Below, in pieces: positions 6,538-36,621 of a stretch of DNA of 64,000 bases (its first letter is position 1; each line of letters opens with the position of its first letter). Made by a program: the position numbers and the translations under genes. The stretch is from Giardia intestinalis (taxonomy: Eukaryota). The notes beneath the pieces were generated by a model that saw only the letters and a program-made list of their open reading frames with translations, was not told the origin of the DNA and made no database searches. The stretch lies in NCBI GenBank assembly GCA_000002435.2, contig CM018791.1; one strand, written 5' to 3'.

Positions 6538-7626
6538 TCACCTTCTGCGGACAATAGGCTTGTTCGTGCTGCGAGGCAGAGCTCTCACGGGTGCACGCTT
6601 CGATTGGGTCGGCTTGGTGATCGCACGAGCGGTGGGGCGGGCTACAGCAGAGCGGCTAGCATTGCCAGTCACAGAGCTCCTCGATTGGACCGTCTTCTTG
6701 GGAGCCGTCCTGGAGCGGGACGTTGAGGCCGTCTTGCTAGATGACCTAACCACTGTCCTGAGCGGTGTTTGGCTGCGGCTGTTTGGCATGTTGCATTTCC
6801 TCTGCGCATTGTGTGCACTGTTGTGCATGTTGCTCTTGGCCTTGCCACAGTTGGAGGCGCTACGAGCGTTGCAGCTTGTCTTTCGTCCCGACGCATTGCG
6901 GACTACTGTCTGCCTGTAGTACGTGCATCCATCTCTCTCGAGAGTTGTGGGGCAGTTTGTCGGCGGGAGAGCAGTGCAGTAATCGCAGTCTGTTGTTCCA
7001 CAGAGGTAGATTCCGGTGTAGGTGTCAGGCGCAGCTGTGCAAACGAGATCGGTGTTGCACTGGACATGAATCTCCATCATGTAAGGCAGGTCGAAGAGAT
7101 CTGCCGGAACGTCGCCAGTCAGCTCGTTGCAGTCAAGGTGGAGCTCCTTGAGGAATTGGAGTTCGTTGACGCAGGTGGGGATGGGACCAGTGAGAGCATT
7201 AATACTCATGTACCAAAACATCATGTGGGTTAAATCACAGATGCACTCGGGAATGTCACCCGTCAGCCCAGCGTTGTTAATTTGCAGGTACTGCATTGAG
7301 GTGAGGGCACAAAGATCCGTCGGGATCGGGCCCGCAAGGTCATTATTATTAAGGTACAGCGACCTCAAAAGTGGGAAGCAGCCTATGTCGGCAGGGAGGG
7401 CACCAGTGAGCCCCATGTCAGAGAGGTCGATCCCAATAACGTTATTGTTAGAGTCGCATGTGATGCCGGTCCAGCTACAGTAAGACACGTCGGGCGTAAG
7501 CCAGTTATTCGACTTCCAATTAGCACCATCCAGGGCATCGTACAAATTGGTCAGGGCCTCCTCCTCGGTGGCAGGGCAAGCGGCGCGAGCAAGACCAAGA
7601 AGTCCTAGAACAAGGGCTGCGATCAT
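6538..7626 (-). CDS. Secreted leucine-rich-repeat protein (plant-type LRR) with a Cys-rich cap and a highly basic Ser/Thr/Arg/Lys-rich C-terminal tail (362 aa).
   Basis: N-terminal signal peptide MIAALVLGLLGLARAA. Repeated LxxLxLxxNxLxGxIP units (LRSLYLNNNDLAGPIPTDL, LQINNAGLTGDIPECI, LHLDCNELTGDVPADL). Multi-Cys region (CGTTDCDYCTALPPTNCP). The last ~110 aa are about 35% R/K/S/T with no hydrophobic segment. Confidence 0.75.
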   Translation of the reverse strand: MIAALVLGLLGLARAACPATEEEALTNLYDALDGANWKSNNWLTPDVSYCSWTGITCDSNNNVIGIDLSDMGLTGALPADIGCFPLLRSLYLNNNDLAGPIPTDLCALTSMQYLQINNAGLTGDIPECICDLTHMMFWYMSINALTGPIPTCVNELQFLKELHLDCNELTGDVPADLFDLPYMMEIHVQCNTDLVCTAAPDTYTGIYLCGTTDCDYCTALPPTNCPTTLERDGCTYYRQTVVRNASGRKTSCNARSASNCGKAKSNMHNSAHNAQRKCNMPNSRSQTPLRTVVRSSSKTASTSRSRTAPKKTVQSRSSVTGNASRSAVARPTARAITKPTQSKRAPVRALPRSTNKPIVRRR

Positions 7627-7919
7627 TTTATTTTCCCAGCCACTGTTGAGCTGCTGTTATCTGTTGACCTCTACAGCATCAGTCTACTGTTTCTTTTTAG
7701 TTCATATCTTAAGTTAAGGTTTTCTCGTTCACAGTCACTATTTGTCAGAACCCATGCTCTCATCAAAGTGGGTTGTAGATGCTTTTGGCTCTGTGTTCCT
7801 CTTGTGACTCTGGTACTTAGAAACACCTTGTGGTTCTAAGGTTCACAGTTGTGCTTCAAGGCCCAAGGGGTATCCTTTATAGTGGACTAAGACATCTGTG
7901 GAGTAGTAAACCACCATCC

Positions 7920-7952
7920 TTTGAGACTTCTTTGAGATTTCTTTGAGACTTT
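7920..7952. repeat. Three tandem copies of a ~10-11 bp unit (TTTGAGAYTTC) in a divergent intergenic region.
   Basis: The sequence reads tttgagacttc / tttgagatttc / tttgagacttt directly. It lies between the divergent LRR (-) and SNF2 (+) genes. Confidence 0.5.
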
Positions 7953-8036
7953 TTCGTGTCACATCGATCACATCCCATGTTTGCCATAGAGCGCACAGCT
8001 GTGTGAATTGGCGGCCAAAAGAAAAATGGCTTTGCT

Positions 8037-8063
8037 TCTCTTTCTACTGCTTCTTTCTACTGC
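8037..8063. repeat. 13-bp direct repeat TCTTTCTACTGC x2 in the same divergent promoter region.
   Basis: tctctttctactgc followed immediately by ttctttctactgc, about 90 bp upstream of the SNF2 ATG. Confidence 0.4.
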
Positions 8064-8149
8064 CTTCGTCGCACTTGTATAGCCTCTGGAGATGACTTTT
8101 GAGAGGATCATTAATAAACTGTCATAAATCATAATTTATAAGGTCCCAT

Positions 8150-11100
8150 ATGAAAACTTCGCTTGCGGATCTTCTGCGAAAGCCACTTCTACGGCATGCA
8201 TTTGATCCCCACGAGCGAGGCAGCAATTTATCCGGAGACCGGGACAGGCAAGGAACGGTAGACCATGGTCAGAATCACGCTCATTGTGTGCAGACCCACC
8301 ATTCATCACCCAGCTCTGCAAGCGGGGAATGCATAAAAATGGAGCCCGCTCAGAGCCATAAAAATCAAGTGGATCCTGAGGACCGGCTGCAGCCGCGCTC
8401 AGATGGTCCAAAACCGCCACAGTCTCAAGAAGCCGGTGTATGCCTTACTTATCAATTGCCATACCTTTCATTTGGAAAAAGAATGATAAAGGTGTTTCCA
8501 AATCTCAACATTACTAACGCTCACCGTGAATTCATGGTTCTCTACGAATTTGACTATCGATTGACAGAATTTTCGCTCATAACGTACCTGACCCAAAAGA
8601 GACGAGCATTCCTCAGCGAAGTGGACCTTTATGCAGAAACAGACTTGGGATCTCCTGAGGATGTGGAGGCATCCCAGTATCTAATCCTTGCCAATCTGAT
8701 TTCTAGGCCAAGGTTGCGAGGGTTTTATCGACCGCTGAATTCTTACTATGCTGTTAACTGTCTCCTTTACCACGATCCACAGCCAGCTAAGACCCTCAAG
8801 ACGTCGTTTCTTCAAAGCCTACAGCAGCAGTCGTTACTTAACATGCGATTTGCTGCTGAGAAGCGGGAAATGGCTGCTACCCTTAAGCAGAAAATGCTTT
8901 CTTTGACAACCGGGAACTTCAAACTCTCGATTGTTTGTAGACATGAATCGCCCTTGATAGGGAAAATATTTGGCTCTGGCCTACAGAAATACATGCTTCC
9001 TAGATCCCAAATACTGACCACTACTGGAAAGCAAGGGTCCTCGGGAGTTAACAAATATTCAAATCTGCCAGACTTTGCCTTCAAAACGTATACTGATGAC
9101 ATGATCAATAGCCTAATTTACATGTACTTGCGCCAGTTTGAAAACGTGTATACATTAGAAGATGCCCGGCAAAAGCGGATTTTCCTGCCACCTGTCTTTT
9201 TGACGTTACTGTTGGAGATAACACGCTATGAGCTGCATGTCATGTCGCGATTGGGGGTGGATCCCACCGTGACCCTCGAGACTACAACAAATAGGAGTAC
9301 TGTGGAAGCCCATGAGATCTCAGCAATGCTGGACTCTATTCTCGCTCGAACTAACCCCTCAGACATAGACCCAGCATGCACTGTCAATTACAGCTACCTT
9401 TTCAAGACCGATTCTTTTGCCGAGTCCGGTTCAGCAGAAGCCCAGGAGGCACTAGAGACACTTATAGAGTCACATCCCGGCTTTACAGAGCGGCATAAGG
9501 CGCTGCTTTATCAAGCAGAGCTCGGGCTGAAGTTGATAGAGTATATCTTGAAGAATACTGGGTACGAGAACAATCTTCACTTTGAGCAGCGGCTGTACGA
9601 CCAAGTCCACATCCAATATCCCATAGAACTCACCACACAGCCTGTATCCATTCAGCATGGTCGATTAAAGAACTACCAGCTGGACGGTGTGAAATTCCTC
9701 GTGTCTTTGTACCGCTCGAGCAATGCCAATCTACAAGATCTTCAAACTGGGACAGGAAGCTCTGGCTGTCTTCTTGCAGATGACATGGGTTGTGGGAAAA
9801 CAGCGCAATCCATAGCCTTTCTGGCGTACTTATCAGACAATCGCATATCTACCGGGATGCACTTGATAATATCCCCACTGGCTGTGTCTGACAGTTGGGC
9901 CACTGAGTTTCAGACATGGTTCCCCAACTTCTCTATTCTTCTCTACAAAGGTGACCAGGAGCAAAGAGCAAAGTATCGGCGACATATCCTGACACTATCC
10001 AAAGGCAACATCAGCGTGTTAACGGATTACGGCGGGCCAGCAATCAAGGATAAGGATTCTCGAACAGCATCTGGCTCAGCTGGGTATTCTTCAGGCGATT
10101 CCGGCAAGTCCACAAATCAAATCCTCTCAAATATTAATGCAATCGTAACGACCTATGAGTACGCCATCAAAGATCGGAGCTTTTTCAGGCAGATTGACTT
10201 TGACGTCGTTATTGTTGATGAAGCGTCAAGAGTTAAGAATGCACGGGGAAAGCTCATAGACGTACTAAAGAAGAGTATCAATTGTAGGTTTAGAATCCTG
10301 CTCAGTGGAACACCTATACAGAATAACCTTCGGGAGTTATTCACCCTGTTAGGTCTGATTCATCCTGCCGTATTTTGCGATTATGATCGCTTTGAAAGCA
10401 TATTTGGCCAAGTGTTCTCACTGGCACATACTGGACGTAACTCAGACCTACACCATGCACACCATGGCTACCATGGCTTCAGAAGACGTGCAAGCACTGA
10501 TAGCGCGCAGCTGGAGGTATCCGACATGAGAACAGGTGCTTCTCCCTCTCTCAGCTCTGTCCAAATGCAAAGCATGCAAAGCATATCTACTACAACTTCT
10601 CAAGCTGTGGGGCGCCGAAGCAAGCGCCAATGCGGATCTACTGCAGTCACCTTTGCAGATGACCTTGGTGAAGATGAGCTAGACAGCAGCTACTCTTACT
10701 CAAACAAGGACAGCAGCGAAGACGAAAATGATAATGATTCAGAGCTGAGCCGGGTTTCTTCTGTGCCCACAGAGATGATGGTTCCGATAGGGTCCACTGC
10801 TAGCTTAATTGGTGCAAAAACAGCTTCTTCCTTACCAGAACTAACTCAGGATCTGCCCCAAAACGCTCCCATTACAAAGGACAACATTGCAGAGGTCGCC
10901 ATACAACTGGCTGAGAACATCGATAAGATATCTGGCCTGACAAACTCACAGAAGACATTCATCGTTGAGAGACTTCACGGTATTTTGAAACCATTTCTTC
11001 TGCGGCGTGTTAAGACTGAGGTTCTTGCACAACTGCCTCCAAAAGAAGAGATTATTATCCGTGTCCCGCTGTCCGCGTTTCAGCTATTTTTTTATAATTT

Positions 11101-14100
11101 GGCGATAGCGAACGGGCGAGCCATGACTAATCCAGACTTAGCATCCTCCCTGCCAGCAAACTTCATTCGCAACCTTGACATCTACTTACGATGTGTTTGT
11201 AATCATCCATTTACCGCACTCGAGCATGATAAGCTCCAGTTGCTTTATAACTTTTATCTGATGAAAGCCAAATCATTTAGTGCTAGGCACAAAGCAGAAA
11301 ATACTGACTTTTATAGGCAGTATGGGGGAGCAAAGGAGGAGGCATCGAAGGACGCTACTGCTTCAATGCCTCCTAATAACTTTAATGTTCTGGAAAATAT
11401 GTATGTTAACGACCAAATATGGCGTGTCTCAGGAAAGCTAGAGCTTCTAGATAACATTCTTGCAAAGTTGCACAAGACAAGCCATCGGGTGCTCATCTTC
11501 AGTCAATTTAAAAAGGTCCTCGACGTCCTTTCTAGTTATTTGCATTATCGCCAGTACAAGTTTGTGCGCTTTGATGGCAGTGTCAAAGACGTAGACCGTA
11601 ATAGCATGATTCGGGGGTACAATAGGGAAGATAGCAAAGACTTTGTCTTCCTCCTCAGTACACGTGCGGCATCTCACGGACTAAATCTCCAAACAGCAGA
11701 TACAGTCATTATCTTTGATTGTGACTACAATGGCACGTATGATCAGCAGGCTCAGGATCGGTGCTATAGGCTTGGACAGGTCAACCCCGTAAAAGTGTTC
11801 AAGCTCTATTCAAATACGGCGATTGAAAGTAAAATGTTGTCGGTGGCGACGTCAAAACTCAGCCTGGCCACGATTGTGATGGACGCGGGCACATACACCA
11901 CCAACGCAGGTGATAAGACCGACGGTACGGCTGGCGCAACAGTGACCGGGGGTGGAGCGCGCAAGAAAACAAAGATGTCAACGCAGGAGTATATCCTCGA
12001 GGTTCTTAGTGCCAACTCTGTCGTTCCAGATGACGTTCACATACCGACCTCCGAAGAAATCAATCGGTATCTGGCTAGAAACGATATGGAGTTTCAAGCC
12101 TTTCAAATGCATGACATTGAGACGTCCCTGTACTGGCGGAAAAGAAACTTTGACGAGGACGTCCCTCGGCTGGATCCAGAGATTCCATCTGTTTTTTCTG
12201 AGCAGAAGGACCAGATTTACGAAGAGATGCGAGAGATGAATCTCTTGGAAGATAAGCAGGAGGTTGTAATGCCTAACATGCAGATTCCTTCAGCAGAGAG
12301 CGGCGGTAAGAGAAGCCATTCTGCTGGTGCTGATTCTAACAGCACTACCAGCGATTATGACGAAGACGACAGCCTAGACGAGGGATTGCTTGCTTCAGAA
12401 ACAGATACCGGGGGGTCACAGCAGCGGAAGTTAGTGCCCAAGGTACTCAAGAAGACACAGTCTATTAAGAAATCCATGAGCCGGTCTCTCACGGCACAAG
12501 ACCTGTCTGAGTCTGCAGTTTTCAGTTTGTGCATGCAAGTGGACAAGTCTCTACGAGACGATCCCGCCTTCCGTAACTCGATAGTCCTCAGCTCTACAAT
12601 TATCCAGAAGACATCCGTTGTTCTGACTCCTGTCGTAGATACCCCTATAGCCTGCTTTTTAATCGACCATGGACACTCAAGTGGTGTCCTGTTTCTTGTC
12701 TCGACAATGGTCGGGATGGCAGATCTATTGCGCCGCGAGGATGCATATAACAACTTAGGGGCTTGCGTAACACAGTACGTATCGTCAAATCTTTCTAGTT
12801 TGTTTGCATGTTTCTCTCGACAGAGCTTGGTTAAGCAATCTGCTGAATCGGTAAGTCTTGCACAGCACCTTTCTTCGCTGGTCATGGCCCCGGGCTTTTC
12901 ATCACCAGGCAACGCTGGCTCTGGGAGCTGGGACTCATATTTGTTTTTGACCGGTAGCGAATCTATTTTGCAGACAGCATACACGTTTCCACTGGCACAG
13001 CAGGGCCATCCTCTCTCTACGTATCAACTACTTTTCACGAAAGCAGCACTATTCATCATGGCCCTGAAGCTTGAACGGGACGTGTTCCACAACGATCTAC
13101 TCTCCTATCTTACAACTGATCTAACTAATGCCAAAAAATACACCGGGATATCCTATTCCAGTCTGTTATTTTATTTCTCATCTGGATTGGCTGTTGCGGT
13201 GGAGGAGCAGTCTCTTTGTGCTCCAGATCTCCTGTATAGTAAGCCTTCATCTGAGAGTGCTGTTCTAAACGAATCAGCCGATACAACCTCTTTATTCTTG
13301 CGATCAGATCGAGCATACACGGATGTTTATATTAAGCTGGAGTCTCTGCCGCAGCTCTCTGGAGATATCGATGTAATAAGGAGAGGGTATGCCTGGTACA
13401 ATGGTCTATCACAGTCACAGAGAGACCAACAACCGTCCTATCTACAATACTTATGTAATGTCATAGACCATTGCCGTGTAGGCGCTGCTTCACAAGATCA
13501 ATTGGACCCCCTGCCAATTTATGTGCGAATAACGACTAATACAGAGAGGCTGCGCTACCTGTACTCTTCTGCACGCAGCAGTGGGGTAACCACAGATGTT
13601 CTTCGTTTACTTTATGCGACTGTCTCATTCCACCTGCGCATAATGGCCATCTTCAACTATCTGATTCATCTGATTGATCCTCTTTGTGCTCACCCCAGTG
13701 AGGACAGCGTTGACGTTTCTTCTACTGTCGCAGGTGACTCTGAACCCGAATCCGGAAAGGAAGACTCTAGTAAGGCGTTACTCACTTATCGGATTCTCTC
13801 CCAATTTTGGATACTACCAAGCAAAACAGAGCTACCATCTTATTACCACGCTATCCCTTATCCGCGATCACTTGCTTACATATACTACAAACTGATAACG
13901 CTGTCATATTTATCCCTGCATGAATTCGTAGCAGATATGCGTCAGAGTTTTAAAAACTGCCTGCAATTCAATGAGCGAAGCTCAGCTTTTTGTGAGCATG
14001 CTAAGGTGTGCAATGAGCTCACTTTCCAGCAAATCTCTCAGCACTTCCAGTACTGTAATGCAAGTAGTGTAATATCTTGGTTTACCGCCTATGAACGGCG

Positions 14101-14389
14101 TCTCAGCGTAGTGAAGAAGGGATACACTCTGTTATCTACCTTTGTAGGTTGCGGCATATATGAGTTGCTGAGCCTCCCGATCACAGAGGGCCCTGGGCCC
14201 TTCCATCTTGAGATGGATGGAGAAAAGTGCAAAGGGCTTATACTCTCCTACGGGTCTGGTGCAGATATGGCTGGGTTGTGTGCCTATGATATCTTACGGT
14301 ACGCCATAGCTGCAGCTAAGGAGGGTGAAAGCGGCACAGGAAGTACTGTTACATACCCAGACGCCTCTGTCCGTCACGTCAAGAAGTAG
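8150..14389 (+). CDS. SNF2/Brahma-type chromatin-remodelling ATPase with a C-terminal bromodomain (2079 aa).
   Basis: SNF2_N motifs: LKNYQLDGVKFL, ADDMGCGKT (Walker A), VVIVDEASRVKN (DEAx box), LLSGTPIQNNLRELFTLL. Helicase-C: VLIFSQFKKVLDVL...RFDGS, LLSTRAASHGLNLQTADTVIIFDCDYN, QAQDRCYRLGQ. Bromodomain-like segment at ~13780-14050 (LPSYYHAIPYPRSLAYIYYKL...LHEFVADMRQSFKNCLQFNERSSAF). A Ser/Asp/Glu-rich low-complexity insert at ~10400-10950 splits the ATPase lobes. Confidence 0.85.
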   Translation: MKTSLADLLRKPLLRHAFDPHERGSNLSGDRDRQGTVDHGQNHAHCVQTHHSSPSSASGECIKMEPAQSHKNQVDPEDRLQPRSDGPKPPQSQEAGVCLTYQLPYLSFGKRMIKVFPNLNITNAHREFMVLYEFDYRLTEFSLITYLTQKRRAFLSEVDLYAETDLGSPEDVEASQYLILANLISRPRLRGFYRPLNSYYAVNCLLYHDPQPAKTLKTSFLQSLQQQSLLNMRFAAEKREMAATLKQKMLSLTTGNFKLSIVCRHESPLIGKIFGSGLQKYMLPRSQILTTTGKQGSSGVNKYSNLPDFAFKTYTDDMINSLIYMYLRQFENVYTLEDARQKRIFLPPVFLTLLLEITRYELHVMSRLGVDPTVTLETTTNRSTVEAHEISAMLDSILARTNPSDIDPACTVNYSYLFKTDSFAESGSAEAQEALETLIESHPGFTERHKALLYQAELGLKLIEYILKNTGYENNLHFEQRLYDQVHIQYPIELTTQPVSIQHGRLKNYQLDGVKFLVSLYRSSNANLQDLQTGTGSSGCLLADDMGCGKTAQSIAFLAYLSDNRISTGMHLIISPLAVSDSWATEFQTWFPNFSILLYKGDQEQRAKYRRHILTLSKGNISVLTDYGGPAIKDKDSRTASGSAGYSSGDSGKSTNQILSNINAIVTTYEYAIKDRSFFRQIDFDVVIVDEASRVKNARGKLIDVLKKSINCRFRILLSGTPIQNNLRELFTLLGLIHPAVFCDYDRFESIFGQVFSLAHTGRNSDLHHAHHGYHGFRRRASTDSAQLEVSDMRTGASPSLSSVQMQSMQSISTTTSQAVGRRSKRQCGSTAVTFADDLGEDELDSSYSYSNKDSSEDENDNDSELSRVSSVPTEMMVPIGSTASLIGAKTASSLPELTQDLPQNAPITKDNIAEVAIQLAENIDKISGLTNSQKTFIVERLHGILKPFLLRRVKTEVLAQLPPKEEIIIRVPLSAFQLFFYNLAIANGRAMTNPDLASSLPANFIRNLDIYLRCVCNHPFTALEHDKLQLLYNFYLMKAKSFSARHKAENTDFYRQYGGAKEEASKDATASMPPNNFNVLENMYVNDQIWRVSGKLELLDNILAKLHKTSHRVLIFSQFKKVLDVLSSYLHYRQYKFVRFDGSVKDVDRNSMIRGYNREDSKDFVFLLSTRAASHGLNLQTADTVIIFDCDYNGTYDQQAQDRCYRLGQVNPVKVFKLYSNTAIESKMLSVATSKLSLATIVMDAGTYTTNAGDKTDGTAGATVTGGGARKKTKMSTQEYILEVLSANSVVPDDVHIPTSEEINRYLARNDMEFQAFQMHDIETSLYWRKRNFDEDVPRLDPEIPSVFSEQKDQIYEEMREMNLLEDKQEVVMPNMQIPSAESGGKRSHSAGADSNSTTSDYDEDDSLDEGLLASETDTGGSQQRKLVPKVLKKTQSIKKSMSRSLTAQDLSESAVFSLCMQVDKSLRDDPAFRNSIVLSSTIIQKTSVVLTPVVDTPIACFLIDHGHSSGVLFLVSTMVGMADLLRREDAYNNLGACVTQYVSSNLSSLFACFSRQSLVKQSAESVSLAQHLSSLVMAPGFSSPGNAGSGSWDSYLFLTGSESILQTAYTFPLAQQGHPLSTYQLLFTKAALFIMALKLERDVFHNDLLSYLTTDLTNAKKYTGISYSSLLFYFSSGLAVAVEEQSLCAPDLLYSKPSSESAVLNESADTTSLFLRSDRAYTDVYIKLESLPQLSGDIDVIRRGYAWYNGLSQSQRDQQPSYLQYLCNVIDHCRVGAASQDQLDPLPIYVRITTNTERLRYLYSSARSSGVTTDVLRLLYATVSFHLRIMAIFNYLIHLIDPLCAHPSEDSVDVSSTVAGDSEPESGKEDSSKALLTYRILSQFWILPSKTELPSYYHAIPYPRSLAYIYYKLITLSYLSLHEFVADMRQSFKNCLQFNERSSAFCEHAKVCNELTFQQISQHFQYCNASSVISWFTAYERRLSVVKKGYTLLSTFVGCGIYELLSLPITEGPGPFHLEMDGEKCKGLILSYGSGADMAGLCAYDILRYAIAAAKEGESGTGSTVTYPDASVRHVKK

Positions 14390-27700: not shown

Positions 27701-28569
27701 ATCGCTATAGGCTGTGGGGTAGTCACCAGATCTATCAAGACACTCTTGCACTGTATGGACCCTCTGCTAGGGAACGGGTGCACCTTGTAGCGTGCTGGAA
27801 TGGTGACGGGAAGGCGCCTGATCTCGTTCAATTGATTATTGTACCAGCGATAGAGCCGAAGGACCAGCAGTTGGGTAGACCCTCGGGCATCGAGTTGTCC
27901 CAGCAACCGAGCGTACATGTGTCTCATGCCGTTTACGTCTATGTACTTATTTGCAGCAGTAGGTAGTTCAATAATAAGCACATAGGGTGGAGAACCTTGA
28001 ACATGCAGAGCCTCCCCAAAGATGTGGAGTGAATCAGCCACCGGCCGAATGATAAGTTGCTGAGTTTGCAAGCGGGTGCGCTTAATGAACAGCTTGGTAA
28101 GGACAGGAATATACGTCAATAGCAAAAGATATGAAGAGTCTCCCGGAAAGCATACGTCAGCAGGACTCCGAAGGCGAATGGAGGCGGTGAGTCCTTGCTG
28201 TTTAAGGTTAGTGACCGTTATGGTATACTGATATCGTGCACCCCAATCACGAGTAACAGTTGAAATGGCAAGAAGATGCCCATTGGGAGAAATAGCTGCT
28301 GAAAGTATGCGGCTCGTGGAAGGAAGAGAGGATAAAAGGGTAGCGCTCTTATTATGCTGGTGATCGTGTAATAAGATCTCTGAGAAAATACAGCGCTGAT
28401 TTTGCAGACGGCAAATAATTTCTCGAACCAAAAGAAATCTGGGTGAAGTCTCGGTGCCGACATCAAGAACACATGGTCCAGAGTGAACTCCAATCACCCG
28501 GAGATTTGCAGGACCCTCTGTGGTCCCTGAAGAACGAGGGAAGAGGCGTTCACGCGTTATCGTTAACAT
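24730..28569 (-). CDS. Large hypothetical protein (1279 aa). The N-terminal region is beta-rich (possible propeller). The central region is Ser/Thr/Pro-rich with basic stretches.
   Basis: Uninterrupted 3.8 kb ORF with a confirmed ATG at 28567-28569. The central low-complexity region includes a KRKKQKQ basic cluster. Confidence 0.8.
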   Translation of the reverse strand: MLTITRERLFPRSSGTTEGPANLRVIGVHSGPCVLDVGTETSPRFLLVREIICRLQNQRCIFSEILLHDHQHNKSATLLSSLPSTSRILSAAISPNGHLLAISTVTRDWGARYQYTITVTNLKQQGLTASIRLRSPADVCFPGDSSYLLLLTYIPVLTKLFIKRTRLQTQQLIIRPVADSLHIFGEALHVQGSPPYVLIIELPTAANKYIDVNGMRHMYARLLGQLDARGSTQLLVLRLYRWYNNQLNEIRRLPVTIPARYKVHPFPSRGSIQCKSVLIDLVTTPQPIAIFSCHSLGCTMIKICACLTASIFTFSLATPLQKVTEDAPRTAFQANAPHEKTLPAERDSTYLFNYEYVTATLHKFILLVHANYLLFIQPFSLSTAQLVIVALPSYGSMYIAYSALLPFQVCNFQAYYALKQFSKLPPVSSYISKYQSQAQYLLHYMALSLVDLSKEQILTDMHAARTTIDRMLEYVISPMSGSGGYADTPFGFISYAELASVYMHTRVRQIAGLPEAPKLDVEALCGWTGLNKENYPDVGMDSLHPTSLLSSLITLALNDPKSGASTLARTTSKATDSTPSPHTHQDVSATNLSTSRRLANPARIPSAMHTCQTDYTDEPRSPGEPSIPPIVVAPPTLTDLNALHSEVHSVNDSPDNFLTSTVTTSVADTTAFDELDEQPPQKRSGPRHKELSIDTLVSQRKVLLSQFQRKRKKQKQAADLDSSVTSVVSKKSMSSKLTSQFTPMIEAKDLEQKSLESDCASLSLELTYLSRPISGSINFPMQSTIDLTGLLKCIPQPSYTFYLKDIDEICHLSRSWRYSVIPSYCSSAEGWSTKVTFAAFDMLLQRQLDLTVDLSQLAINLCHPRPKDMCACLYEARLLRLNHKLVLLYHRYTRLLHINLLTIASDINTPSFSDSSQLHSIHVEWWKRLLSKLRTHCMLEYSTLVGCLLEKVSISLKTSNPSDSNAIQFSLLALKGILLNTQKANTSYPCSLAINLYSNPLHVFLHSVTQDKILTSSPWSKCTTMYAAHSYLHISNTLEHPSSATQLCTSKTDATNSLEQFGIPQQNIPIYDQSVEKNIKFGAGRAIELYKYMSTDSICPTYTNNYAQECLVELNTYVSDITALTTVAPCLSAFSGLITQRLDGQPSVEDEIEASIDTPILHASADLITNYSCNDCRHVWRDSAIYKAFVAIVERFYPNIADPFFIQVYADVISMCEACLGIDTNFSIEELNVIISICESLNLNLMGHRSTSRVLNRALSLLYGKFSDPMLQEMMGKYL

Positions 28570-28950
28570 CCTCTTCTTTAAAAATTTGTGCTACTCTACT
28601 CTACCCTATCGTTCTCAGGTAATTAATGATATCATAAAAAACAGAGAGACTTGTTAGTCGTGCACTCTACATAAGCTCAAGCCTAGAATTTAACAGATGT
28701 TTCACGGAGTAGAATGGAACTAATTATATTTGGGATTGATGTTTTATAGGTCTCCTGCTCTTTTTAGAGTTGCACTAAGCTGACGAGGTTTCCTCTTTCT
28801 TTGCTTATGGTTCATGCTTTTCTGACGCTGATTGGATTTGCTTGCAGGTTATTACTGAGCTCTACTACTGTTTCCGCTTCAAGTGAACTTTCTGCCGGCC
28901 GCGTTATACAGTATCATTGAAGATTTGTTATAACAACTATAACTCAAAAA

Positions 28951-31437
28951 ATGACGTCTGCGCCGCAGCCCTCGGGCCTCTTCGACCCGGCGCCCCGGCC
29001 CACGGCGGCGGGGGACGGACGCCCGCCCGCGGCAGCCGCGCCCTCGTTCGTCCTCGCCGGCGACCCCGAGGGCCTCGCAGGCGCGTTCCTCCGCGTCGTC
29101 CACCAGGCGCTCGTCCTCGGGCGGCTCGAGGCCCTCCTCGACGGCCCCCCGCCCGCCGGAGACGCCCCGCAGCTCTGGGCCGGGCTCCTCCGCGCCGCGC
29201 TCGCCGGGGCGGGGACGCTCGACCTGGGGCCTCTTGCCGCGCAGCTCGGGCCGCTCCCAGACCCCGGGGCGCTCCCGGCGCTCGTCCGCTCCCTCCCGGC
29301 CCCCGTCTGCGCCGCGCTCTTCGGGCTCCCCGGGCCCTGCCCCGCGTGCGGCGCGCCCTCCCAGCCCGGGGCGAGCGCCGTCCTCGCGCCCGGAGAGGCC
29401 CTCGCCGCAGGGGCCCGGCGGGTCGGCCTCCGCTGCGAGAGCTGCACCCGCCCAGACGCCCTCCCGCTCGCCCGGCCGCCCCTCCTCCGCGCCGTCGCCG
29501 TCCCCCCGGGCTTCGCGGGCCCCGTCCCCCTCCGGCTCCCCGGCGACCTCTTCCTCGGGGCCGTCGTCACCCGCGCCCGCGCCGGCCACGCGCTCTCGGT
29601 CTTCGTCAACCCCGCCTTCGCCCAGGGCCGGAGCGACCTCGTCCGGGACCGCCGCTTCGTCCTCTACGCGCCCCCGGCCGCCGAGCTCCGCGCCCAGCCC
29701 GGGAGCCGCGCCGCCGAGCTCACGTACCTCCGCTACCGGAAGGTCCAGGCGTACCTCGAGCGCCCCGCCGCCGCCCGCGAGGCCGCCTCCTTCGGGGCGC
29801 CCCGCTTCGTCTTCTACTTCGACGGAGACGTTCTGCACCCAGACATTAGGAAGCGCTTTAATGCGCTAGCCTCTGATACTGACCTGATTGCGATTAATCC
29901 ATCACTATCTGCTCCACATCAGCCTCCAACCCTTTCGCAGCCACACACGCTATCCTCCCCCAAGGAGCCAGAAACTGTTGATGTCACACTTAAAGTCGGT
30001 GGTGCTACCAAGCAAACTCTAGCTGAACAGCAGCACACTCTTGCCTCTCCGTCCCTAGATTCGAGACCGCCTTTGAGTACACTTTCTTTGCACAAATCTA
30101 GCCAACTAGTTGGTGAATCGACTCCTTGGAAAGAAACCAAGACGATCTTATTGCGCCCAGACTTTGTTCAGGAAAGGAAAACATCGTGTTCAGATGAATT
30201 TCGTGAGCACATGGGCATATACATTCTGATTATTGTTCTAGCAGTTATAGTTCTTGTTCTCTTCATCCTCGTGATTGTTCTCTATTCCAGATTGATTAAT
30301 TTGACTGTTCGCAATCTACTTGTCACAAATTTCACGGCAATAGGTGTCCAGTCACGCTTAGACATCCCCAACCCAGCGCAGTTCACGTGCCCAAGTGGGA
30401 TTCAAGACGTGAACGCAGTAAGATACTGTGAGCAGATGGCTCCTGATGCAACCGTTGGCCTCTATGCACCAACTGTTCGAACCGGTACATTCAATTCTAA
30501 GCAGTACAATGTGACCAACCTCTACTATTCTAATATCTTCCTTCTTAACTTTACTCAGATAGCCCCTCTGAATGTCTCCGAACTCATAGCACAGAATATT
30601 ATGACAAATGACGTCACATATAGTACAGAACTTGTCCAGGAAGGGACAGCAGAGTTCCGGACCGGCCAGGTTAGTGTCCAAGGCTTTAGAAGTGCAGATT
30701 TCACCAACACAACGCTGAATTTCAGTCTTACGAGCCTTTCTGCTCTTCATGTGCGTGGCATCTCCTCGCCAAGCTCTGTGACTCCGTCGACTATAGGAAC
30801 TGTCAATGCCGGCAAACTAGTGTTGGCTCAAAAAGATCCAATCACTCCAATCACCACCTTCAGTATAATAGGAGACGTCAATGTGTCACGCCTCGTTGGA
30901 GGCTCTACAACAATCGGACAGCAGGCACTAGAATGGGTGTTTCAGAACGTATCCGCTTCCAAGCTAGTTACCACACCCGTAACAACGACAGTCAAGACAA
31001 TCAATGGAATGGATACTCCTGTCACATTAGATATAAACCTCAATGATGCTTTGTCCGTGAAGACTCTCACTCTTCTTAAGTCGGGTACGTCGGCATCGAT
31101 CCAAATATCTGCTGCATTTACCATCAGTAAGGCTTCTGTATACAATTGCACTACAGCCTTGCTGACAATTCCTAGTGCCACAGCGACTCCGCCCAACACG
31201 GGAACTGGTTTGTATATCAAGAGCCTCTCTGATAAACCGTTTCCTCAGATATCTGCTCTGGTTGTGGGGAATATTCGGATTGACAATGGGGGGATATGCA
31301 ACGCCAATGACCCTCCGGCATCTACGACGCGGACATGCATGATATCAAGCGCAGGCAGCAGCAATATCGGGTCTATGTCTGCCACGACAGTCACTTCTAC
31401 TGGGCAGTTGAAGAGCTCTTTCTGCCAATGCACATGA
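28951..31437 (+). CDS. Compositionally chimeric ORF (828 aa): an Ala/Pro/Gly/Arg/Leu-rich N-terminal ~295 aa encoded by ~80% GC DNA, fused in frame to a single-pass membrane protein with a Thr/Ser/Asn-rich ectodomain.
   Basis: ATG at 28951 follows an A/T-rich initiator (aactataactcaaaaaATG). GC3 exceeds 90% through ~29836, then composition abruptly returns to ~45% GC. There is a TM segment MGIYILIIVLAVIVLVLFILVIVLY at ~30212-30290 and many NxS/T sequons downstream. An alternative internal start is the Met at 30211. Confidence 0.55.
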   Translation: MTSAPQPSGLFDPAPRPTAAGDGRPPAAAAPSFVLAGDPEGLAGAFLRVVHQALVLGRLEALLDGPPPAGDAPQLWAGLLRAALAGAGTLDLGPLAAQLGPLPDPGALPALVRSLPAPVCAALFGLPGPCPACGAPSQPGASAVLAPGEALAAGARRVGLRCESCTRPDALPLARPPLLRAVAVPPGFAGPVPLRLPGDLFLGAVVTRARAGHALSVFVNPAFAQGRSDLVRDRRFVLYAPPAAELRAQPGSRAAELTYLRYRKVQAYLERPAAAREAASFGAPRFVFYFDGDVLHPDIRKRFNALASDTDLIAINPSLSAPHQPPTLSQPHTLSSPKEPETVDVTLKVGGATKQTLAEQQHTLASPSLDSRPPLSTLSLHKSSQLVGESTPWKETKTILLRPDFVQERKTSCSDEFREHMGIYILIIVLAVIVLVLFILVIVLYSRLINLTVRNLLVTNFTAIGVQSRLDIPNPAQFTCPSGIQDVNAVRYCEQMAPDATVGLYAPTVRTGTFNSKQYNVTNLYYSNIFLLNFTQIAPLNVSELIAQNIMTNDVTYSTELVQEGTAEFRTGQVSVQGFRSADFTNTTLNFSLTSLSALHVRGISSPSSVTPSTIGTVNAGKLVLAQKDPITPITTFSIIGDVNVSRLVGGSTTIGQQALEWVFQNVSASKLVTTPVTTTVKTINGMDTPVTLDINLNDALSVKTLTLLKSGTSASIQISAAFTISKASVYNCTTALLTIPSATATPPNTGTGLYIKSLSDKPFPQISALVVGNIRIDNGGICNANDPPASTTRTCMISSAGSSNIGSMSATTVTSTGQLKSSFCQCT
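28956..29836 (+). other. Roughly 0.9 kb compositional island (~80% GC against a ~48% background) with strong 3-nt periodicity in the +1 frame of the 28951 ORF.
   Basis: Codon-by-codon reading shows third positions are almost exclusively G/C while second positions are mixed. All six frames are stop-free across the block: ORF-track entries 28879-29838(-), 28917-29849(+), 28944-29609(-) and 29234-29869(+) all terminate at the edges of the block. Confidence 0.9.
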
Positions 31438-31465: not shown

Positions 31466-34153
31466 TTACATATCTTGTAACCTGTAGATTGCGGATACAA
31501 AGGCAACAAAAAGGGTGTGCGGGAGTCTGTGTTTTGACGTGAATTCAGGATGGTACTGGGTGGCCATGAAGAAGGGGTGTGCTTCTGTTGGTAACTCCAC
31601 AGCCATAGGAAGTTGGTTGGTGAAGTCCATACCACTTATTATCAGTCCGTGCTCAGTCAAGGTATCAATGTACTGGGTGTTGACGGCGAACGAGTGCCAG
31701 TGACGCTCCTTCACCTGAGGATACTTGTTGTAGCACTCGGATAGCATTGTGTTTGACTTAACTGACACCAGAAGGTCGCCCAGTCGCATAGTGCTATACT
31801 TTGCGGTGGTACCCGGATTGGCCGCGTTCTGCTGCTTGTGGAGAGGTTTGATTTGCCCGGTCTCAAGCATCTCACTAATGGGAATAATGAGTTTGTGCGG
31901 AGTGTCAGGGTCCATTTCCGTCGAGTTTGCATGGCTGAGACCACATACATTTCTCGCAAACTCGCACACCATCATCTGGAAGCCAAGACAGAGACCAAGT
32001 ATTGGCTTGTTGTGAGTTCTTGCATATTTAATCGATAACATAAGGCCGTTAACACCAATGTCTCCAAACCCACCAGGAAGAACAAACCCGTGGGCCTCTT
32101 GTAGAATGTCATCACAGTTCTTTTCATCAAGAGCTGTGGGATCTACCCACAGGAATGCGAATGGCTTATCATGGTAGTATTTGTGCATAGTAGCCCGCAG
32201 TGCTTCCAGGATAGAGAGGTAGGAGTCCTCTCTTGCAACAAACTTCCCGACAATTGCTATAATGCAGGGAAGATCCAAATGCTTAAGGGTCATTTCATGG
32301 CGAAGAGTTTTTGCTTGGGCTGCACTTGCAAGCATCTGCTGCAAACTCGTCTCGACTTCCTTTTTCTTCAGATTTTCAATGCGCAACTTTAAGTGTCCAT
32401 CAGCGTTCGAGGGGTGATGATGCTTTTTGAGCTTCAGTGTTACGTGGGTACTTCTATTACGTACAGATGCGGAGGACCCAGAATTATGAGCCAAGACGAT
32501 TTCTCCAGGAACTTCACTGGTAGACTCACTTGGGCCTTGCAATTCTGAGTGAGCTGTCGGTGTGTGCGCGCAGGAATCTGTGCAGTAACTATGGCCACTC
32601 TGGTAGCTCTGGTAGCTTTGATGGCTTGGTAGGTCTTTTGCCGTAGCTGTAATCAAGGACCCAAGGGGCATATTGGTGTCTTTCTCTGCAAGAAAGGCAT
32701 CTCCATAGTTCTTGACCATCTTTGCCACGCTTTTGGACCCAAAGTATTTCTTCTGTGAACTTAAGTGTGACTTATCAGCAATAGTACTAGTGTCAGACTC
32801 GGAATCATACAGTGCCATGTCCGAGATGACCTCTTCGGAGTGGTCCTCGTCATATATGTTGGACGCCAGGCGCATGTGCGTTAACTTCTGGCTTATAGAC
32901 TTGCAGCAGAGATCAGTTGGGGATGCCAAATATGTAAAAGTTGCCTCTGTGATGGCCTCATTGACATCCAGCAAGTGTGAATTAAGGGTACAAATGGGGC
33001 ACACTTCTGTATTCTTTGCGGTCCCACATATCATGCAGATGGCACCAAAAATGCCTTCAGCTGCGTGATCCTGCTCTTCAGTAATGTTCGCCAGAGCGTT
33101 ATCGAATCCTCTGAGCACCTCGTCCCCCAATTCCACCACCTCTTCGCGGTCCACCCTCATCTCCACGAGGACATTCCCAAGCGCCTCCATCTGACCCGTG
33201 CATTTGGCCATCTCAATAGCTTTCTTCATATCTGTTTCAGCTGTTAACGCGCTCTCATCAGTGAATGAAGGAAGAACCGCCATCGAGCTGACCAGCTCTG
33301 TTGCAGACTTGGCAGCAAAGGCCTTGAACGCCCAAGCTTTGTTCCATTTGGCAATGAGCTCTTTCAGCATTATTTTCTCGTCAGACATTCCTTTAGCGTC
33401 TACTCGCGTTGCATTGATGGTGTATTCATCGTCCAAAATGTCTGTGCTATTTAGGTTCTGAAGTTGTATGAGGTAGTCCGGGGCGTACCCGCAGAAAAGC
33501 TGCATTATCTCTGGCTTGATTGCATCAGGATTTGCTGTGGCCATCAAAATAATGATGCTGCCTCGCTGCGGAGCAGATGGAGGTGGATCTTCACTGCAAC
33601 TCAGAGACAGCAGCCTCTCGATGGTTCTAGTAAAAATTTGGGTTGAGGGTTGGCGCACACCGCCCCCAATCTCAACGATACGAATGGGGATTTCATAGGA
33701 ATTCATACCTGAAGAAGGTGGATGCTGCAGGGTGGGCTCCATCTGGATGTACGTAACAAGGTAATCCAATAGGTCCTCTTCGAAGGTAAGCCGTGTAAAC
33801 CCGGTTTCCTGTTGCTTCGCCTGTTGAATGTACAGCTGCTGAATGGCCTGTCCAAGGGTTAAACATGACGTTCGCGGCAGCTCTCCCGTTATACTTCTCT
33901 CAATGATCCCCACGTCATAATCCACCTCGCCACCGTCCCATGTGATGAAGGCCTCACCCTCCTTCTCTGGAGAAAGATTTCCAAAAGTTAAAGATAGGGT
34001 TGTGGAGAGCTTTAGGTACGAGAAAGGGATTCTTTTCTGGTCTAGATAAGAGGCCAGATAGGCCGACAGAGCTGTTGTCTTCGCATTGTAGTCATCTGTG
34101 AGAATGAAAATAAAGCGCTGGACGCCCTTCGTTACATCTGCAGAAAGAGGCAT
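31466..34153 (-). CDS. Divergent CTP synthase-like protein (895 aa) with a ~330-aa insertion between the synthetase and glutamine-amidotransferase domains.
   Basis: The N-terminus aligns to the CTPS synthetase domain ([27 protein letters not shown] vs [35 protein letters not shown] vs IVELGGTVGD). The C-terminal ~250 aa is a class-I GATase with the catalytic Cys in GLCLGFQ and His in YHPEF. The central region (residues ~290-620) has no CTPS counterpart. Confidence 0.7.
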   Translation of the reverse strand: [895 protein letters not shown]

Positions 34154-35167: not shown

Positions 35168-35301
35168 GCGCATCAAGCTCTCCTCTCCCTGTTGAAGTGC
35201 TGTGAGATGGACATGTATGGTGGGGTAGTGTACGGTAGAGTAAATCCAAAATTCAAGATTTAAGAACAAGGAGGCCAAATTTTTAGATATTGCTGTTCCT
35301 A

Positions 35302-36621
35302 ATGGAGCCTGCTGTGGATTCTGTTGACCGCGATAAACGGGGTGAGTGGGGTGATCCCACGCAGGACGTTAGCCGTGTTGGCCATGTTGGCCTCTTAAAT
35401 CTAGGTAATACCTGTTTCATGAACAGTGGACTCCAGGTTCTTTTGTCAAGCAAACACCTTATAGGGGCGATTATGAAACTGAGAGAACGAGAACAGAGCG
35501 ATTTCAATGGGACCCGTGTCAACGGCAGGGAAATGCAAGATGCCTTTCAGAACCTTATTGATGCATCAAGAGGCAACATGACAGACATTTACAGGCCTGA
35601 TAAGATAAAAGACGCTGCATCAAGACTGAATAAATCCTTCAGGGGGTATGGACAGCAAGATTCATTTGAACTTATTCAAACAGTCCTGGATGGATTGGAG
35701 AAGGAGACAAATAAAGCAAAGGAGGTACCATACAAATTGCTAGACACAGATGGAATGGGGTACAGCAAGGCACAAGAGCTGTTTCGAGAGCACCACCACA
35801 TGAAGTACGACTCGCCAATCACGAAGGTCACATGCACGGAGCTTGCCAAGTGCGTCATGTGCACGAAGTGCCGCGCCAAATCATACTCCTTTTCCTACTG
35901 TCAAGCACTTCTCTTGGACCTGCCCATCAAGGAAAGTAGAACTGAAGTGAAGAAAACGAAAAAGGACGAAAAACAGGATCGGGGTAGTGGTAATAGATTG
36001 AGTCTCAGTGCACTCATCAATAACTCAGAAAAAGTATACACTGTGGACAACTACTACTGTGCAAAGTGCAAGACTCACCAGCGCGTACATGTACGGGAAT
36101 GGATATCCGAGCCAGCCAAGTGTCTTATCATTCAGCTCAAACGCTTCAGAAACGAGGGACACAGTGTGCTTCCTCGGTTTCTCTGGAGATACAGTAAGAA
36201 CGACTCGTCCGTCGAGTACGAGGACACGCTGGAGATACAATCCCTCGAGTTTGAGCAAGATGGTGTCGAAAAAGATGACATGCAGCCTGACAGGGCATAT
36301 TCAGGATCTGAGGTGGACTCCAGTGCAGATCCGACTGTCTGGGAGACCCCGTTGCATGACGATAGTAGTAGTGAGCACGTAGTGCAAGGAATGATAGCCA
36401 CGGCACTAGACGCTAAGGCACCGCATGTCAGAAGCTACAAATACCGGTACCGAGGGGCATCTTTGCACTCTGGAGGTCTGGGCGGCGGACACTACACAGC
36501 ACTCTGCTACGGCTGCAACGACAAGTACTACTACTGCAACGACTCGAGCGTCACAGTAGTGGACAGAGGAAAGTTGGACACCCGTGCATATGTGCTTCTG
36601 TTTGACAGGGTGGATTGCTAG
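35302..36621 (+). CDS. Ubiquitin carboxyl-terminal hydrolase (USP/UBP, peptidase C19), ~440 aa.
   Basis: Cys box GLLNLGNTCFMNSGLQVL and His box YRYRGASLHSGGLGGGHYTALCYGCNDKYYYCNDSSV. The ORF-track start at 35290 is TTG. The first ATG at 35302 (MEPAVDS...) follows an A/T-rich leader. Confidence 0.8.
   Translation: MEPAVDSVDRDKRGEWGDPTQDVSRVGHVGLLNLGNTCFMNSGLQVLLSSKHLIGAIMKLREREQSDFNGTRVNGREMQDAFQNLIDASRGNMTDIYRPDKIKDAASRLNKSFRGYGQQDSFELIQTVLDGLEKETNKAKEVPYKLLDTDGMGYSKAQELFREHHHMKYDSPITKVTCTELAKCVMCTKCRAKSYSFSYCQALLLDLPIKESRTEVKKTKKDEKQDRGSGNRLSLSALINNSEKVYTVDNYYCAKCKTHQRVHVREWISEPAKCLIIQLKRFRNEGHSVLPRFLWRYSKNDSSVEYEDTLEIQSLEFEQDGVEKDDMQPDRAYSGSEVDSSADPTVWETPLHDDSSSEHVVQGMIATALDAKAPHVRSYKYRYRGASLHSGGLGGGHYTALCYGCNDKYYYCNDSSVTVVDRGKLDTRAYVLLFDRVDC

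Follow-up and report, generated by a model that had tools for sequence, protein, structure and literature searches.

The gene GL50803_00114636 (hereafter 114636) occupies positions 28951..31437 of the + strand in a 64,000-nt stretch of the Giardia intestinalis genome (GenBank assembly GCA_000002435.2, contig CM018791.1), the whole of which is referred to below as the window. It encodes a Giardia-specific single-pass membrane protein of 828 amino acids (aa) plus stop, and the first third or so of its coding sequence is a block of about 81% GC. As judged from alignments with a paralog, GL50803_28832 (hereafter 28832), this block is shown to have undergone concerted evolution by recurrent interlocus gene conversion between the two genes. 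Taken as a whole, the explanation that we regard as probable is that of a native segment encoding most of a pseudo-USP domain, which became an interlocus conversion tract and whose GC content was driven up by GC-biased gene conversion. No published account of this conversion tract was found in a literature search. The process at work is a known one, of which the tract offers a new and unusually clear-cut case, and whether and how Giardia recombines is still a matter of debate. The tract is also among the sharpest known within-gene cases of composition tracking a conversion tract, the switch falling at the very base where the identity of the paralogs ends.

A tract shared by two paralogs

The paralog GL50803_0028832 (770 aa, KAE8303169.1) and 114636 (KAE8303189.1) are found on the same 1,973,847-bp record of the WB isolate, 20 protein accessions apart, i.e., at a spacing of ~20 genes on one 1.97 Mb chromosome if accession numbering and shared record length are taken as a guide. 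In the comparisons reported here, the paralog is represented by the WB protein of 28832 and by the DNA of its DH (A2) ortholog. Over positions 28948..29825 of the + strand (878 nt), the window and the DH copy of the paralog are identical at 877 of 878 positions, with a lone mismatch at 29198, while in the 150 columns on either side of this tract identity drops to 37-40%, a level that amounts to alignment noise. Identity thus sets in 3 nt ahead of the ATG and ends at codon 292, and the limits of the tract, as defined by identity boundaries, composition and site patterns, are co-extensive with those of the GC-rich block. At the protein level, the WB paralogs are ~99% identical over aa 1-292, and beyond aa 292 the proteins of the paralog lineage are ~23-25% identical to 114636. 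Upstream, the intergenic region (28570..28950, + strand), with a GC content of 32-47% and an A/T-rich initiator (…CTCAAAAAATG), is ~37% identical to the region upstream of the paralog, i.e., displays no alignable similarity to it.

Both paralogs are present in Giardia muris, with conserved neighbours, and the duplication is therefore old, predating G. muris. The pattern of variable sites was analyzed among four sequences, namely 114636 and 28832 from assemblage A and from assemblage B. Over the final 146 columns of the block, the sequences are grouped by assemblage at seven variable sites and by orthology at no site; downstream of the block, grouping by orthology prevails, with 379 sites versus 25 for assemblage (Fisher p = 9e-9). 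Within the tract, changes specific to assemblage B are common to its two copies. Together with the age of the duplication, this assemblage-wise grouping indicates that the block was homogenized independently in the A and B lineages. Two singleton differences between the paralogs are C/T.

As shown by these data, 114636 and 28832, although anciently duplicated, keep swapping exactly this 878-bp segment by recurrent interlocus conversion; the segment thus evolves in concert, and elsewhere the two genes have diverged to ~24% amino-acid identity. The edges of the tract would then be the limits of the homology that conversion can use: at the 5' edge, 3 nt ahead of the ATG, the dissimilar promoters would set the limit, and at the 3' edge, at codon 292, accumulated divergence would block further heteroduplex formation. 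The exchange of an 878-bp segment between two loci, in both assemblages A and B, is concrete evidence of active homologous recombination in Giardia, and the two loci offer a possible experimental handle on both the rate of conversion and its GC bias.

Composition and boundaries of the GC-rich block

A previous sequence-only reading of this region had described a block of ~80% GC, with more than 90% GC at third codon positions (GC3), that starts exactly at an ATG and ends abruptly, and each of these points is confirmed. Between 28951 and 29835 (885 nt), GC content is 80.7% and, in the frame set by the ATG at 28951, amounts to 85, 61, and 96% at first, second, and third codon positions (GC1, GC2, and GC3), respectively; in the remainder of the same open reading frame (ORF; 29836-31437), it is 46.9% overall and 48, 47, and 46% at the three positions. 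Third bases of codons 1-292 are C in 194 cases and G in 86, as compared to nine A and three T. Relative to the 1225 other 885-nt intervals of the window (mean GC 0.468, sd 0.026, maximum 0.559), the block has a z-score of 13. Along the window, GC content per kb is 43-55%, with the exception of 29001-30000 (75.8%). When followed in 60-nt steps, it climbs at the ATG from 35-45% to 78%, remains at 72-88% up to ~29820 and has returned to 45-53% by 29850. The profile is the same in WB, DH, and GS_B, with a GC3 of 92-100% over codons 1-292 and 40-50% thereafter. The possibility that many genes share such a GC3 was also considered: none does in the window, where the 21 other large ORFs range from 45 to 72%, and the block is thus an outlier. 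The suggestion that the segment matches nothing else holds within the 64-kb window, where no second copy was found, but not in the genome, as the block is also present in a paralog.

The frame that opens with the ATG at 28951 is protein-coding in the block, as had been proposed from codon periodicity: three-base periodicity is clear, and the + frame is matched in tblastn searches by all eight relatives of normal composition (E = 1e-19 to 1e-47). Four alternative ORFs of 211-319 aa that overlap the block (28879-29838 and 28944-29609 on the - strand, 28917-29849 and 29234-29869 on the + strand) were discarded as artefacts of a stop-poor sequence of 81% GC, since homology exists only for the + frame that starts at the ATG. 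The consequences of the composition for the encoded domain are considerable, as Gly, Ala, Arg, and Pro (GARP) make up 54% of its residues, versus 22-28% in the relatives of normal composition. In addition, the coding strand is strongly C-rich, with a GC skew of -0.1 to -0.39; given this C-richness, the template strand of 28951-29835 bears many runs of G, which might matter, for example, through G-quadruplexes or an asymmetry of transcription-coupled repair.

Possible role of GC-biased gene conversion

We infer that the extreme GC content is most likely due to GC-biased gene conversion within the converted tract. In this process, repair of the conversion heteroduplex would be biased to G/C and would push synonymous sites to ~96% G/C; where the protein tolerates it, the same bias would also shift first and second codon positions, yielding a domain rich in Ala, Pro, Gly, and Arg. 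The GC enrichment indeed has the same limits as the converted tract, and synonymous sites show it most strongly. Moreover, the drop in GC falls at the boundary of conversion and not at that of the structural domain: in the structure model, the domain extends to aa 308, and its last helix, formed by aa 297-308, lies outside the tract and has a normal codon composition. The order GC3 > GC1 > GC2, together with the 54% GARP, points to a pressure exerted at the DNA level and filtered by protein constraint. If this explanation holds, a non-adaptive pressure can drive a folded domain to such a composition while its fold-defining residues survive.

Divergence between the assemblage A and B orthologs (Nei-Gojobori) points in the same direction. 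In the block, synonymous (dS) and nonsynonymous (dN) divergence are 0.107 and 0.065, respectively (dN/dS 0.6), as compared to 1.50 and 0.167 (dN/dS 0.11) in the rest of the gene; dS is therefore 14-fold lower in the block and dN 2.6-fold lower. Out of the 10 synonymous A-B differences in the block, seven are G<->C. A low dS dominated by such changes fits a process that rejects strong-to-weak (S->W) changes and leaves transversions that are neutral for composition.

Several observations weigh against this explanation, or against parts of it. The concerted-evolution test in assemblage B covers just the last 146 nt of the block, as both assemblage B contigs (GS_B and BAH15c1) end within it, and the end of the BAH15c1 contig looks error-prone; likewise, the WB nucleotide comparison was made via the 28832 protein and the DNA of the DH ortholog. 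The GC bias of conversion is itself deduced from present-day composition and A-B differences. The strand asymmetry of third positions, with C3 (194) far in excess of G3 (86), is not predicted by GC-biased conversion alone. Furthermore, other repeat families of Giardia, such as the VSPs, are to our knowledge not known as GC-extreme. Lastly, the N-domain of the G. muris ortholog, GMRT_13193, is also GC-raised (65-70% versus 39-55% in the rest of the gene, with a GARP share of 43%), and the N-domain of the G. muris paralog GMRT_13203 is highly divergent from it; some of the GC enrichment may thus predate conversion between the paralogs or be independent of it. The weight of this last point is itself limited, as other 300-nt windows of the G. 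muris locus also reach 0.69 GC, and for this reason the GC rise of the G. muris N-domain was downgraded as an instance of the same phenomenon.

Other features of the G. muris sequences were recorded in passing. In GMRT_13193 (10001-10750 of locus L003), GC3 is no higher than overall GC, and its N-domain could represent a decaying, older GC enrichment. A stretch of 0.68-0.69 GC is also found beside an ankyrin gene, at ~21100-21400 of L003, which is the same as ~7100-7500 of L005, partly in a region without called gene (L003 19251-21486).

Alternative explanations for the composition

One alternative, to which we attach a low probability, is that the block is more than a by-product of paralog conversion and marks an unusually strong, localized recombination/repair hotspot or a DNA-level functional element, where a transmission bias toward G/C would be rewriting a folded domain. 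Such an activity would perhaps have existed already in the common ancestor of Giardia, as suggested by the raised GC content of the G. muris ortholog. If this were true, the locus would be a natural reporter of homologous recombination, and of the bias that goes with it, in a eukaryote for which the existence of sex is contested.

About as doubtful is the idea that selection bears on the DNA, the mRNA or codon usage, for instance via translational control at the 5' end, a G-quadruplex (G4)-forming template strand or a recombination/replication signal, conversion being in this case a mere consequence of sequence identity. The 14-fold drop in dS, the C-rich coding strand with its excess of C3 over G3, and the raised GC content of the G. 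muris ortholog in spite of a dissimilar paralog are all compatible with such selection, as is the fact that the gene is regulated: its mRNA increases ~2.6-3-fold upon contact with Caco-2 cells (PMC7461913), and it is among the top up-regulated genes in encysting cells after 7 h on Caco-2 cells (PMC9094438). However, the predicted RNA structure of the block is less stable than that of dinucleotide shuffles (z = +2.2): 20 of 20 shuffles matched or exceeded its stability, and the idea of a structured-RNA element was rejected on this ground. Rfam gave no match over 28000-31000 at E <= 1, in agreement with the earlier view that the segment is not rDNA-like. In addition, most synonymous changes are G<->C, which preserves composition but neither sequence nor pairing, and the shift stops in the middle of a structural domain. 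First and second codon positions are shifted as well and the protein is remodelled, which looks non-adaptive and unlike codon optimization. Translational selection for C- or G-ending codons was similarly rejected as the main cause, since it would act on the whole gene and without a shift at first and second positions.

Introgression between assemblages, i.e., an exchange of the segment after the A-B split that would account for its low divergence, appears less likely still. The contrast in dS between the block and the rest of the gene is what such an event would produce, and sub-assemblages of Giardia are reported to have undergone non-reciprocal exchange (PMC12669663). But dN and dS should then fall together, which is not the case here (2.6- and 14-fold, respectively), and the seven G<->C transversions among the 10 synonymous differences belong to the class of changes that is left once S->W changes are filtered out. 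Introgression would in any case leave the composition unexplained. The two remaining possibilities, a foreign origin of the block and a chimeric assembly, are considered below with the history of the N-domain.

Comparison with known cases of GC enrichment under conversion

GC enrichment of sequences under concerted evolution has precedents. It has reportedly been described for mammalian histone paralogs (by Galtier, in 2003), for hsp70 paralogs (by Kudla et al., in 2004) and for ribosomal DNA (rDNA; by Escobar et al., in 2011, as cited in PMC10123126). The arms of X-chromosome palindromes provide another example (PMC8981503). The tract of 114636 and 28832 resembles these cases in that near-identical duplicates, maintained by non-allelic conversion, are GC-richer than their surroundings, chiefly at synonymous sites and only within the tract. 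It differs from them in several respects: it concerns just two copies and no more than roughly one third of each gene, the contrast within a single ORF is extreme (GC3 of 96% versus 46%), and the protein has been remodelled (54% GARP). Giardia is, besides, a tetraploid, binucleate protist without observed meiosis.

Two cases from the same organism lend independent support to GC-biased conversion. Genes of G. duodenalis that lie in inferred, non-reciprocal conversion events are GC-enriched, with a median of 0.541 versus 0.488 (PMC12669663). These conversion tracts between the AI and AII sub-assemblages are allelic or inter-strain and their enrichment is modest, whereas the 878-bp tract involves two loci of one genome and a far larger enrichment. 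The rDNA of Giardia has a GC content of ~75% in a genome of 49% GC, and GC-biased conversion has been suggested to explain it (PMC10123126). This is again a repeated, homogenized sequence with an extreme GC content, in the same genome; in contrast to the block, however, which has no similarity to rRNA and displays clear three-base periodicity, rDNA specifies a non-coding RNA and is subtelomeric and present in many copies.

Origin of the N-terminal domain

The relatives of the N-terminal domain (N-domain) were sought in an exhaustive phmmer search with aa 1-300 against 1.84 billion representatives. Nine matches were obtained, all from the Giardia lineage, and no bacterial, algal, or viral relative was found in this set. 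The N-domain is hence the hallmark of a small family of single-pass membrane proteins that is confined to the Giardia lineage. Among its members is GL50803_3564, which is 37% identical over the whole N-domain and has an ordinary composition throughout (GC3 of 30-48%, and of 34-48% within the N-domain), as well as GMRT_13193 and GMRT_13203 of G. muris. In WB, the module is also present at residues 1150-1443 of a 2125-aa protein annotated as "lecithin-cholesterol acyl transferase" (LCAT). Matches from Logan assemblies are five in number, four of which are full-length, the fifth being a 105-aa fragment that corresponds in sequence to the end of the GL50803_3564 N-domain on the C-terminal side; two of the full-length ones form a tandem pair on one contig, with one gene in between.

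All full-length relatives share the same order of an N-domain (~300 aa), a linker, one transmembrane (TM) helix and a Thr/Ser/Asn-rich C-terminal part. GMRT_13193 is, in addition, the syntenic ortholog of 114636, adjoining genes for CTP synthase and EMP24 as in the window, and GL50803_3564 is of ordinary composition. On the basis of these family comparisons, the architecture is ancestral and the GC composition is a secondary, local change. Fifteen positions are invariant in the nine family members, including G37, D38, G41, W76, P116, C130, C133, C162, C165, R247, T258, L260, and G282, and the GC-rich copy retains all 15 of them (among which the GD..G motif, the W, the P of the SLP motif, the four Cys, and the T.L within ELTYLK).

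These data bear directly on the proposals that had been made to account for the block, namely that it was acquired horizontally or from a virus, or that a foreign ORF was fused to a resident gene to create a novel architecture. With its 81% GC, a GC3 of 96% and an Ala/Pro/Gly/Arg-rich product, the block does resemble sequences from high-GC genomes and not the rest of the window, but an origin in a high-GC bacterium, alga, or virus, followed by in-frame fusion to a resident gene, is extremely improbable: homologs are restricted to the Giardia lineage, have the same architecture and are mostly of normal composition, the ortholog in G. muris is syntenic, the invariant residues of the family are kept in the GC-rich copy, and BLASTN of the block against a phage collection gave no match.

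An assembly artefact, or a contaminant joined to a Giardia gene, had been envisaged too and can be set aside with similar assurance, for although short-read assemblies tend to break in or at the block, which is thus hard to assemble, the block is in frame and at the same position in the independently assembled WB, DH (A2; ortholog of the paralog), GS_B (assemblage B; ortholog of 114636), and BAH15c1 (assemblage B; ortholog of the paralog) sequences, that is at two loci, is homologous to the other family members, and differs by ~7% between its A and B versions, as expected for vertical inheritance. Horizontal transfer, viral capture, and assembly artefact, all tempting readings of such a sequence, are thereby removed.

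The difficulty of assembly is nonetheless of practical importance, as an identical, high-GC repeat breaks short-read assemblies. Logan fragments, for instance, begin just after the block. Public models of 114636 and 28832 are often truncated at the N-terminus; an internal methionine serves as the start both in the old WB model of 28832 (369 aa) and in the P15 model (357 aa), and these truncations probably reflect the breakage of short-read assemblies at the identical repeat.

Additional observations were made on members of the family. Behind its LCAT-like lipase region, the WB "LCAT" protein (P0022/P0035) displays over residues ~1150-2125 a pseudo-USP domain, a TM helix and a Thr/Ser-rich C-terminal part. 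At the Logan locus L008, the tandem pair of family members is separated by ~4.4 kb from an LCAT gene, and an iron-dependent alcohol dehydrogenase (Fe-ADH) gene (8337-9521) lies directly upstream of a family member (P0016).

Predicted fold of the N-terminal domain

The N-domain (aa 1-309; 28951..29877, + strand) is predicted to adopt a USP fold, with a zinc-ribbon "fingers" subdomain in the structure model; its last helix (aa 297-308) is encoded outside the GC-rich block. The zinc-ribbon insert corresponds to the CxxC…CxxC pairs (C130, C133, C162, C165) at 29338..29445 of the + strand, located from the family alignment and codon positions; these pairs match the USP zinc ribbon, and all four Cys are invariant in the family.

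Other hallmarks of active enzymes are lacking. Besides the four zinc ligands, no conserved Cys or His was found among the nine family members, neither a Cys box nor a His box being conserved, and no Cys is present where USPs hold their catalytic one, at the beginning of the first long helix (aa 37-45, GDPEGLAGA). No Pfam UCH match to the N-domain was obtained even at E <= 10. More generally, searches of Pfam with the full protein and the nine family N-domains returned no domain but just weak zinc-ribbon noise, and a profile search of PDB sequences gave insignificant matches only, of which the USPL1 zinc ribbon (E ~0.6) is a lead and not evidence. As the catalytic Cys and His are not conserved and there is no Pfam UCH match, the N-domain is regarded as USP-like in fold but probably inactive, that is, as a likely pseudo-enzyme and not a deubiquitinase.

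The closest known systems are pseudo-deubiquitinases with a USP fold, such as the pseudo-ubiquitin hydrolase domain of PAN2, or USP54. In contrast to these, the Giardia domain has no Pfam UCH match at the sequence level, is part of a protein with a TM helix and an extracytoplasmic region, and belongs to a family confined to the Giardia lineage. A Giardia-lineage family of membrane proteins, one member of which is induced upon contact with host cells, hence gains its first structural annotation, in the form of a cytosolic, USP-like and probably inactive domain.

Organization of the gene and its product

The 828-aa translation of the 114636 ORF is an exact match to KAE8303189.1/XP_001710255.1 of G. 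intestinalis WB (assemblage A), and the expression reports on Caco-2 contact and encysting cells show that the gene is expressed. As previously noted from the sequence, the frame of the block runs on without interruption, within a single ORF, through a linker and a TM helix to a C-terminal part that is rich in sequons. The Ser/Pro/Thr-rich linker (aa 310-421; 29878..30213, + strand) is fast-evolving, with poor conservation between paralogs and between orthologs. It is followed by the single TM helix (aa 422-445; 30214..30285, + strand), which has a Kyte-Doolittle peak of 3.99, and a comparable peak occurs at the equivalent place in all family members. The C-terminal part (30286..31434, + strand), presumably extracellular, has a C-terminal CxC motif recognized in the family alignment and contains 10 N-x-S/T sequons, while none is found ahead of the helix. 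No signal peptide was found in the 828-aa protein. Given this lack of a signal peptide and the presence of sequons only after the TM helix, a topology with a cytosolic N-terminus and the C-terminus outside is likely. An AlphaFold2 model of the ectodomain, based on an alignment of eight sequences, reached a predicted local distance difference test (pLDDT) score of only 31.8.

Gene neighbourhood

The genes that surround 114636 in the window are eukaryotic and intron-free. They include those for an Fe-ADH (96-1094, + strand), whose GC3 of 72% is the highest among the ordinary values of the window, an SNF2/bromodomain ATPase (8150-14389), a CTP synthase of 895 aa (31466-34153, - strand), and a canonical USP deubiquitinase (35290-36621, + strand; Pfam UCH, E = 7e-43), as well as EMP24 and LRR protein genes. 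In the CTP synthase, the synthase N-domain (aa 30-181) and the glutamine amidotransferase domain (aa 665-886) are split by several hundred residues without Pfam match, and this insertion is kept at 86% identity in assemblage B.

The canonical USP gene is located 3.9 kb downstream of the gene for the pseudo-USP membrane protein, in a neighbourhood that is the same in assemblage B. No sequence similarity was found between the two proteins, and their proximity is therefore probably a coincidence. The LRR and SNF2 genes, located at 6538-14389 in the window, are found in G. muris on the flanks of the other paralog. Along with the Fe-ADH gene that adjoins a family member at the Logan locus L008, this arrangement suggests that the paralog cluster was originally tighter and has since been rearranged.

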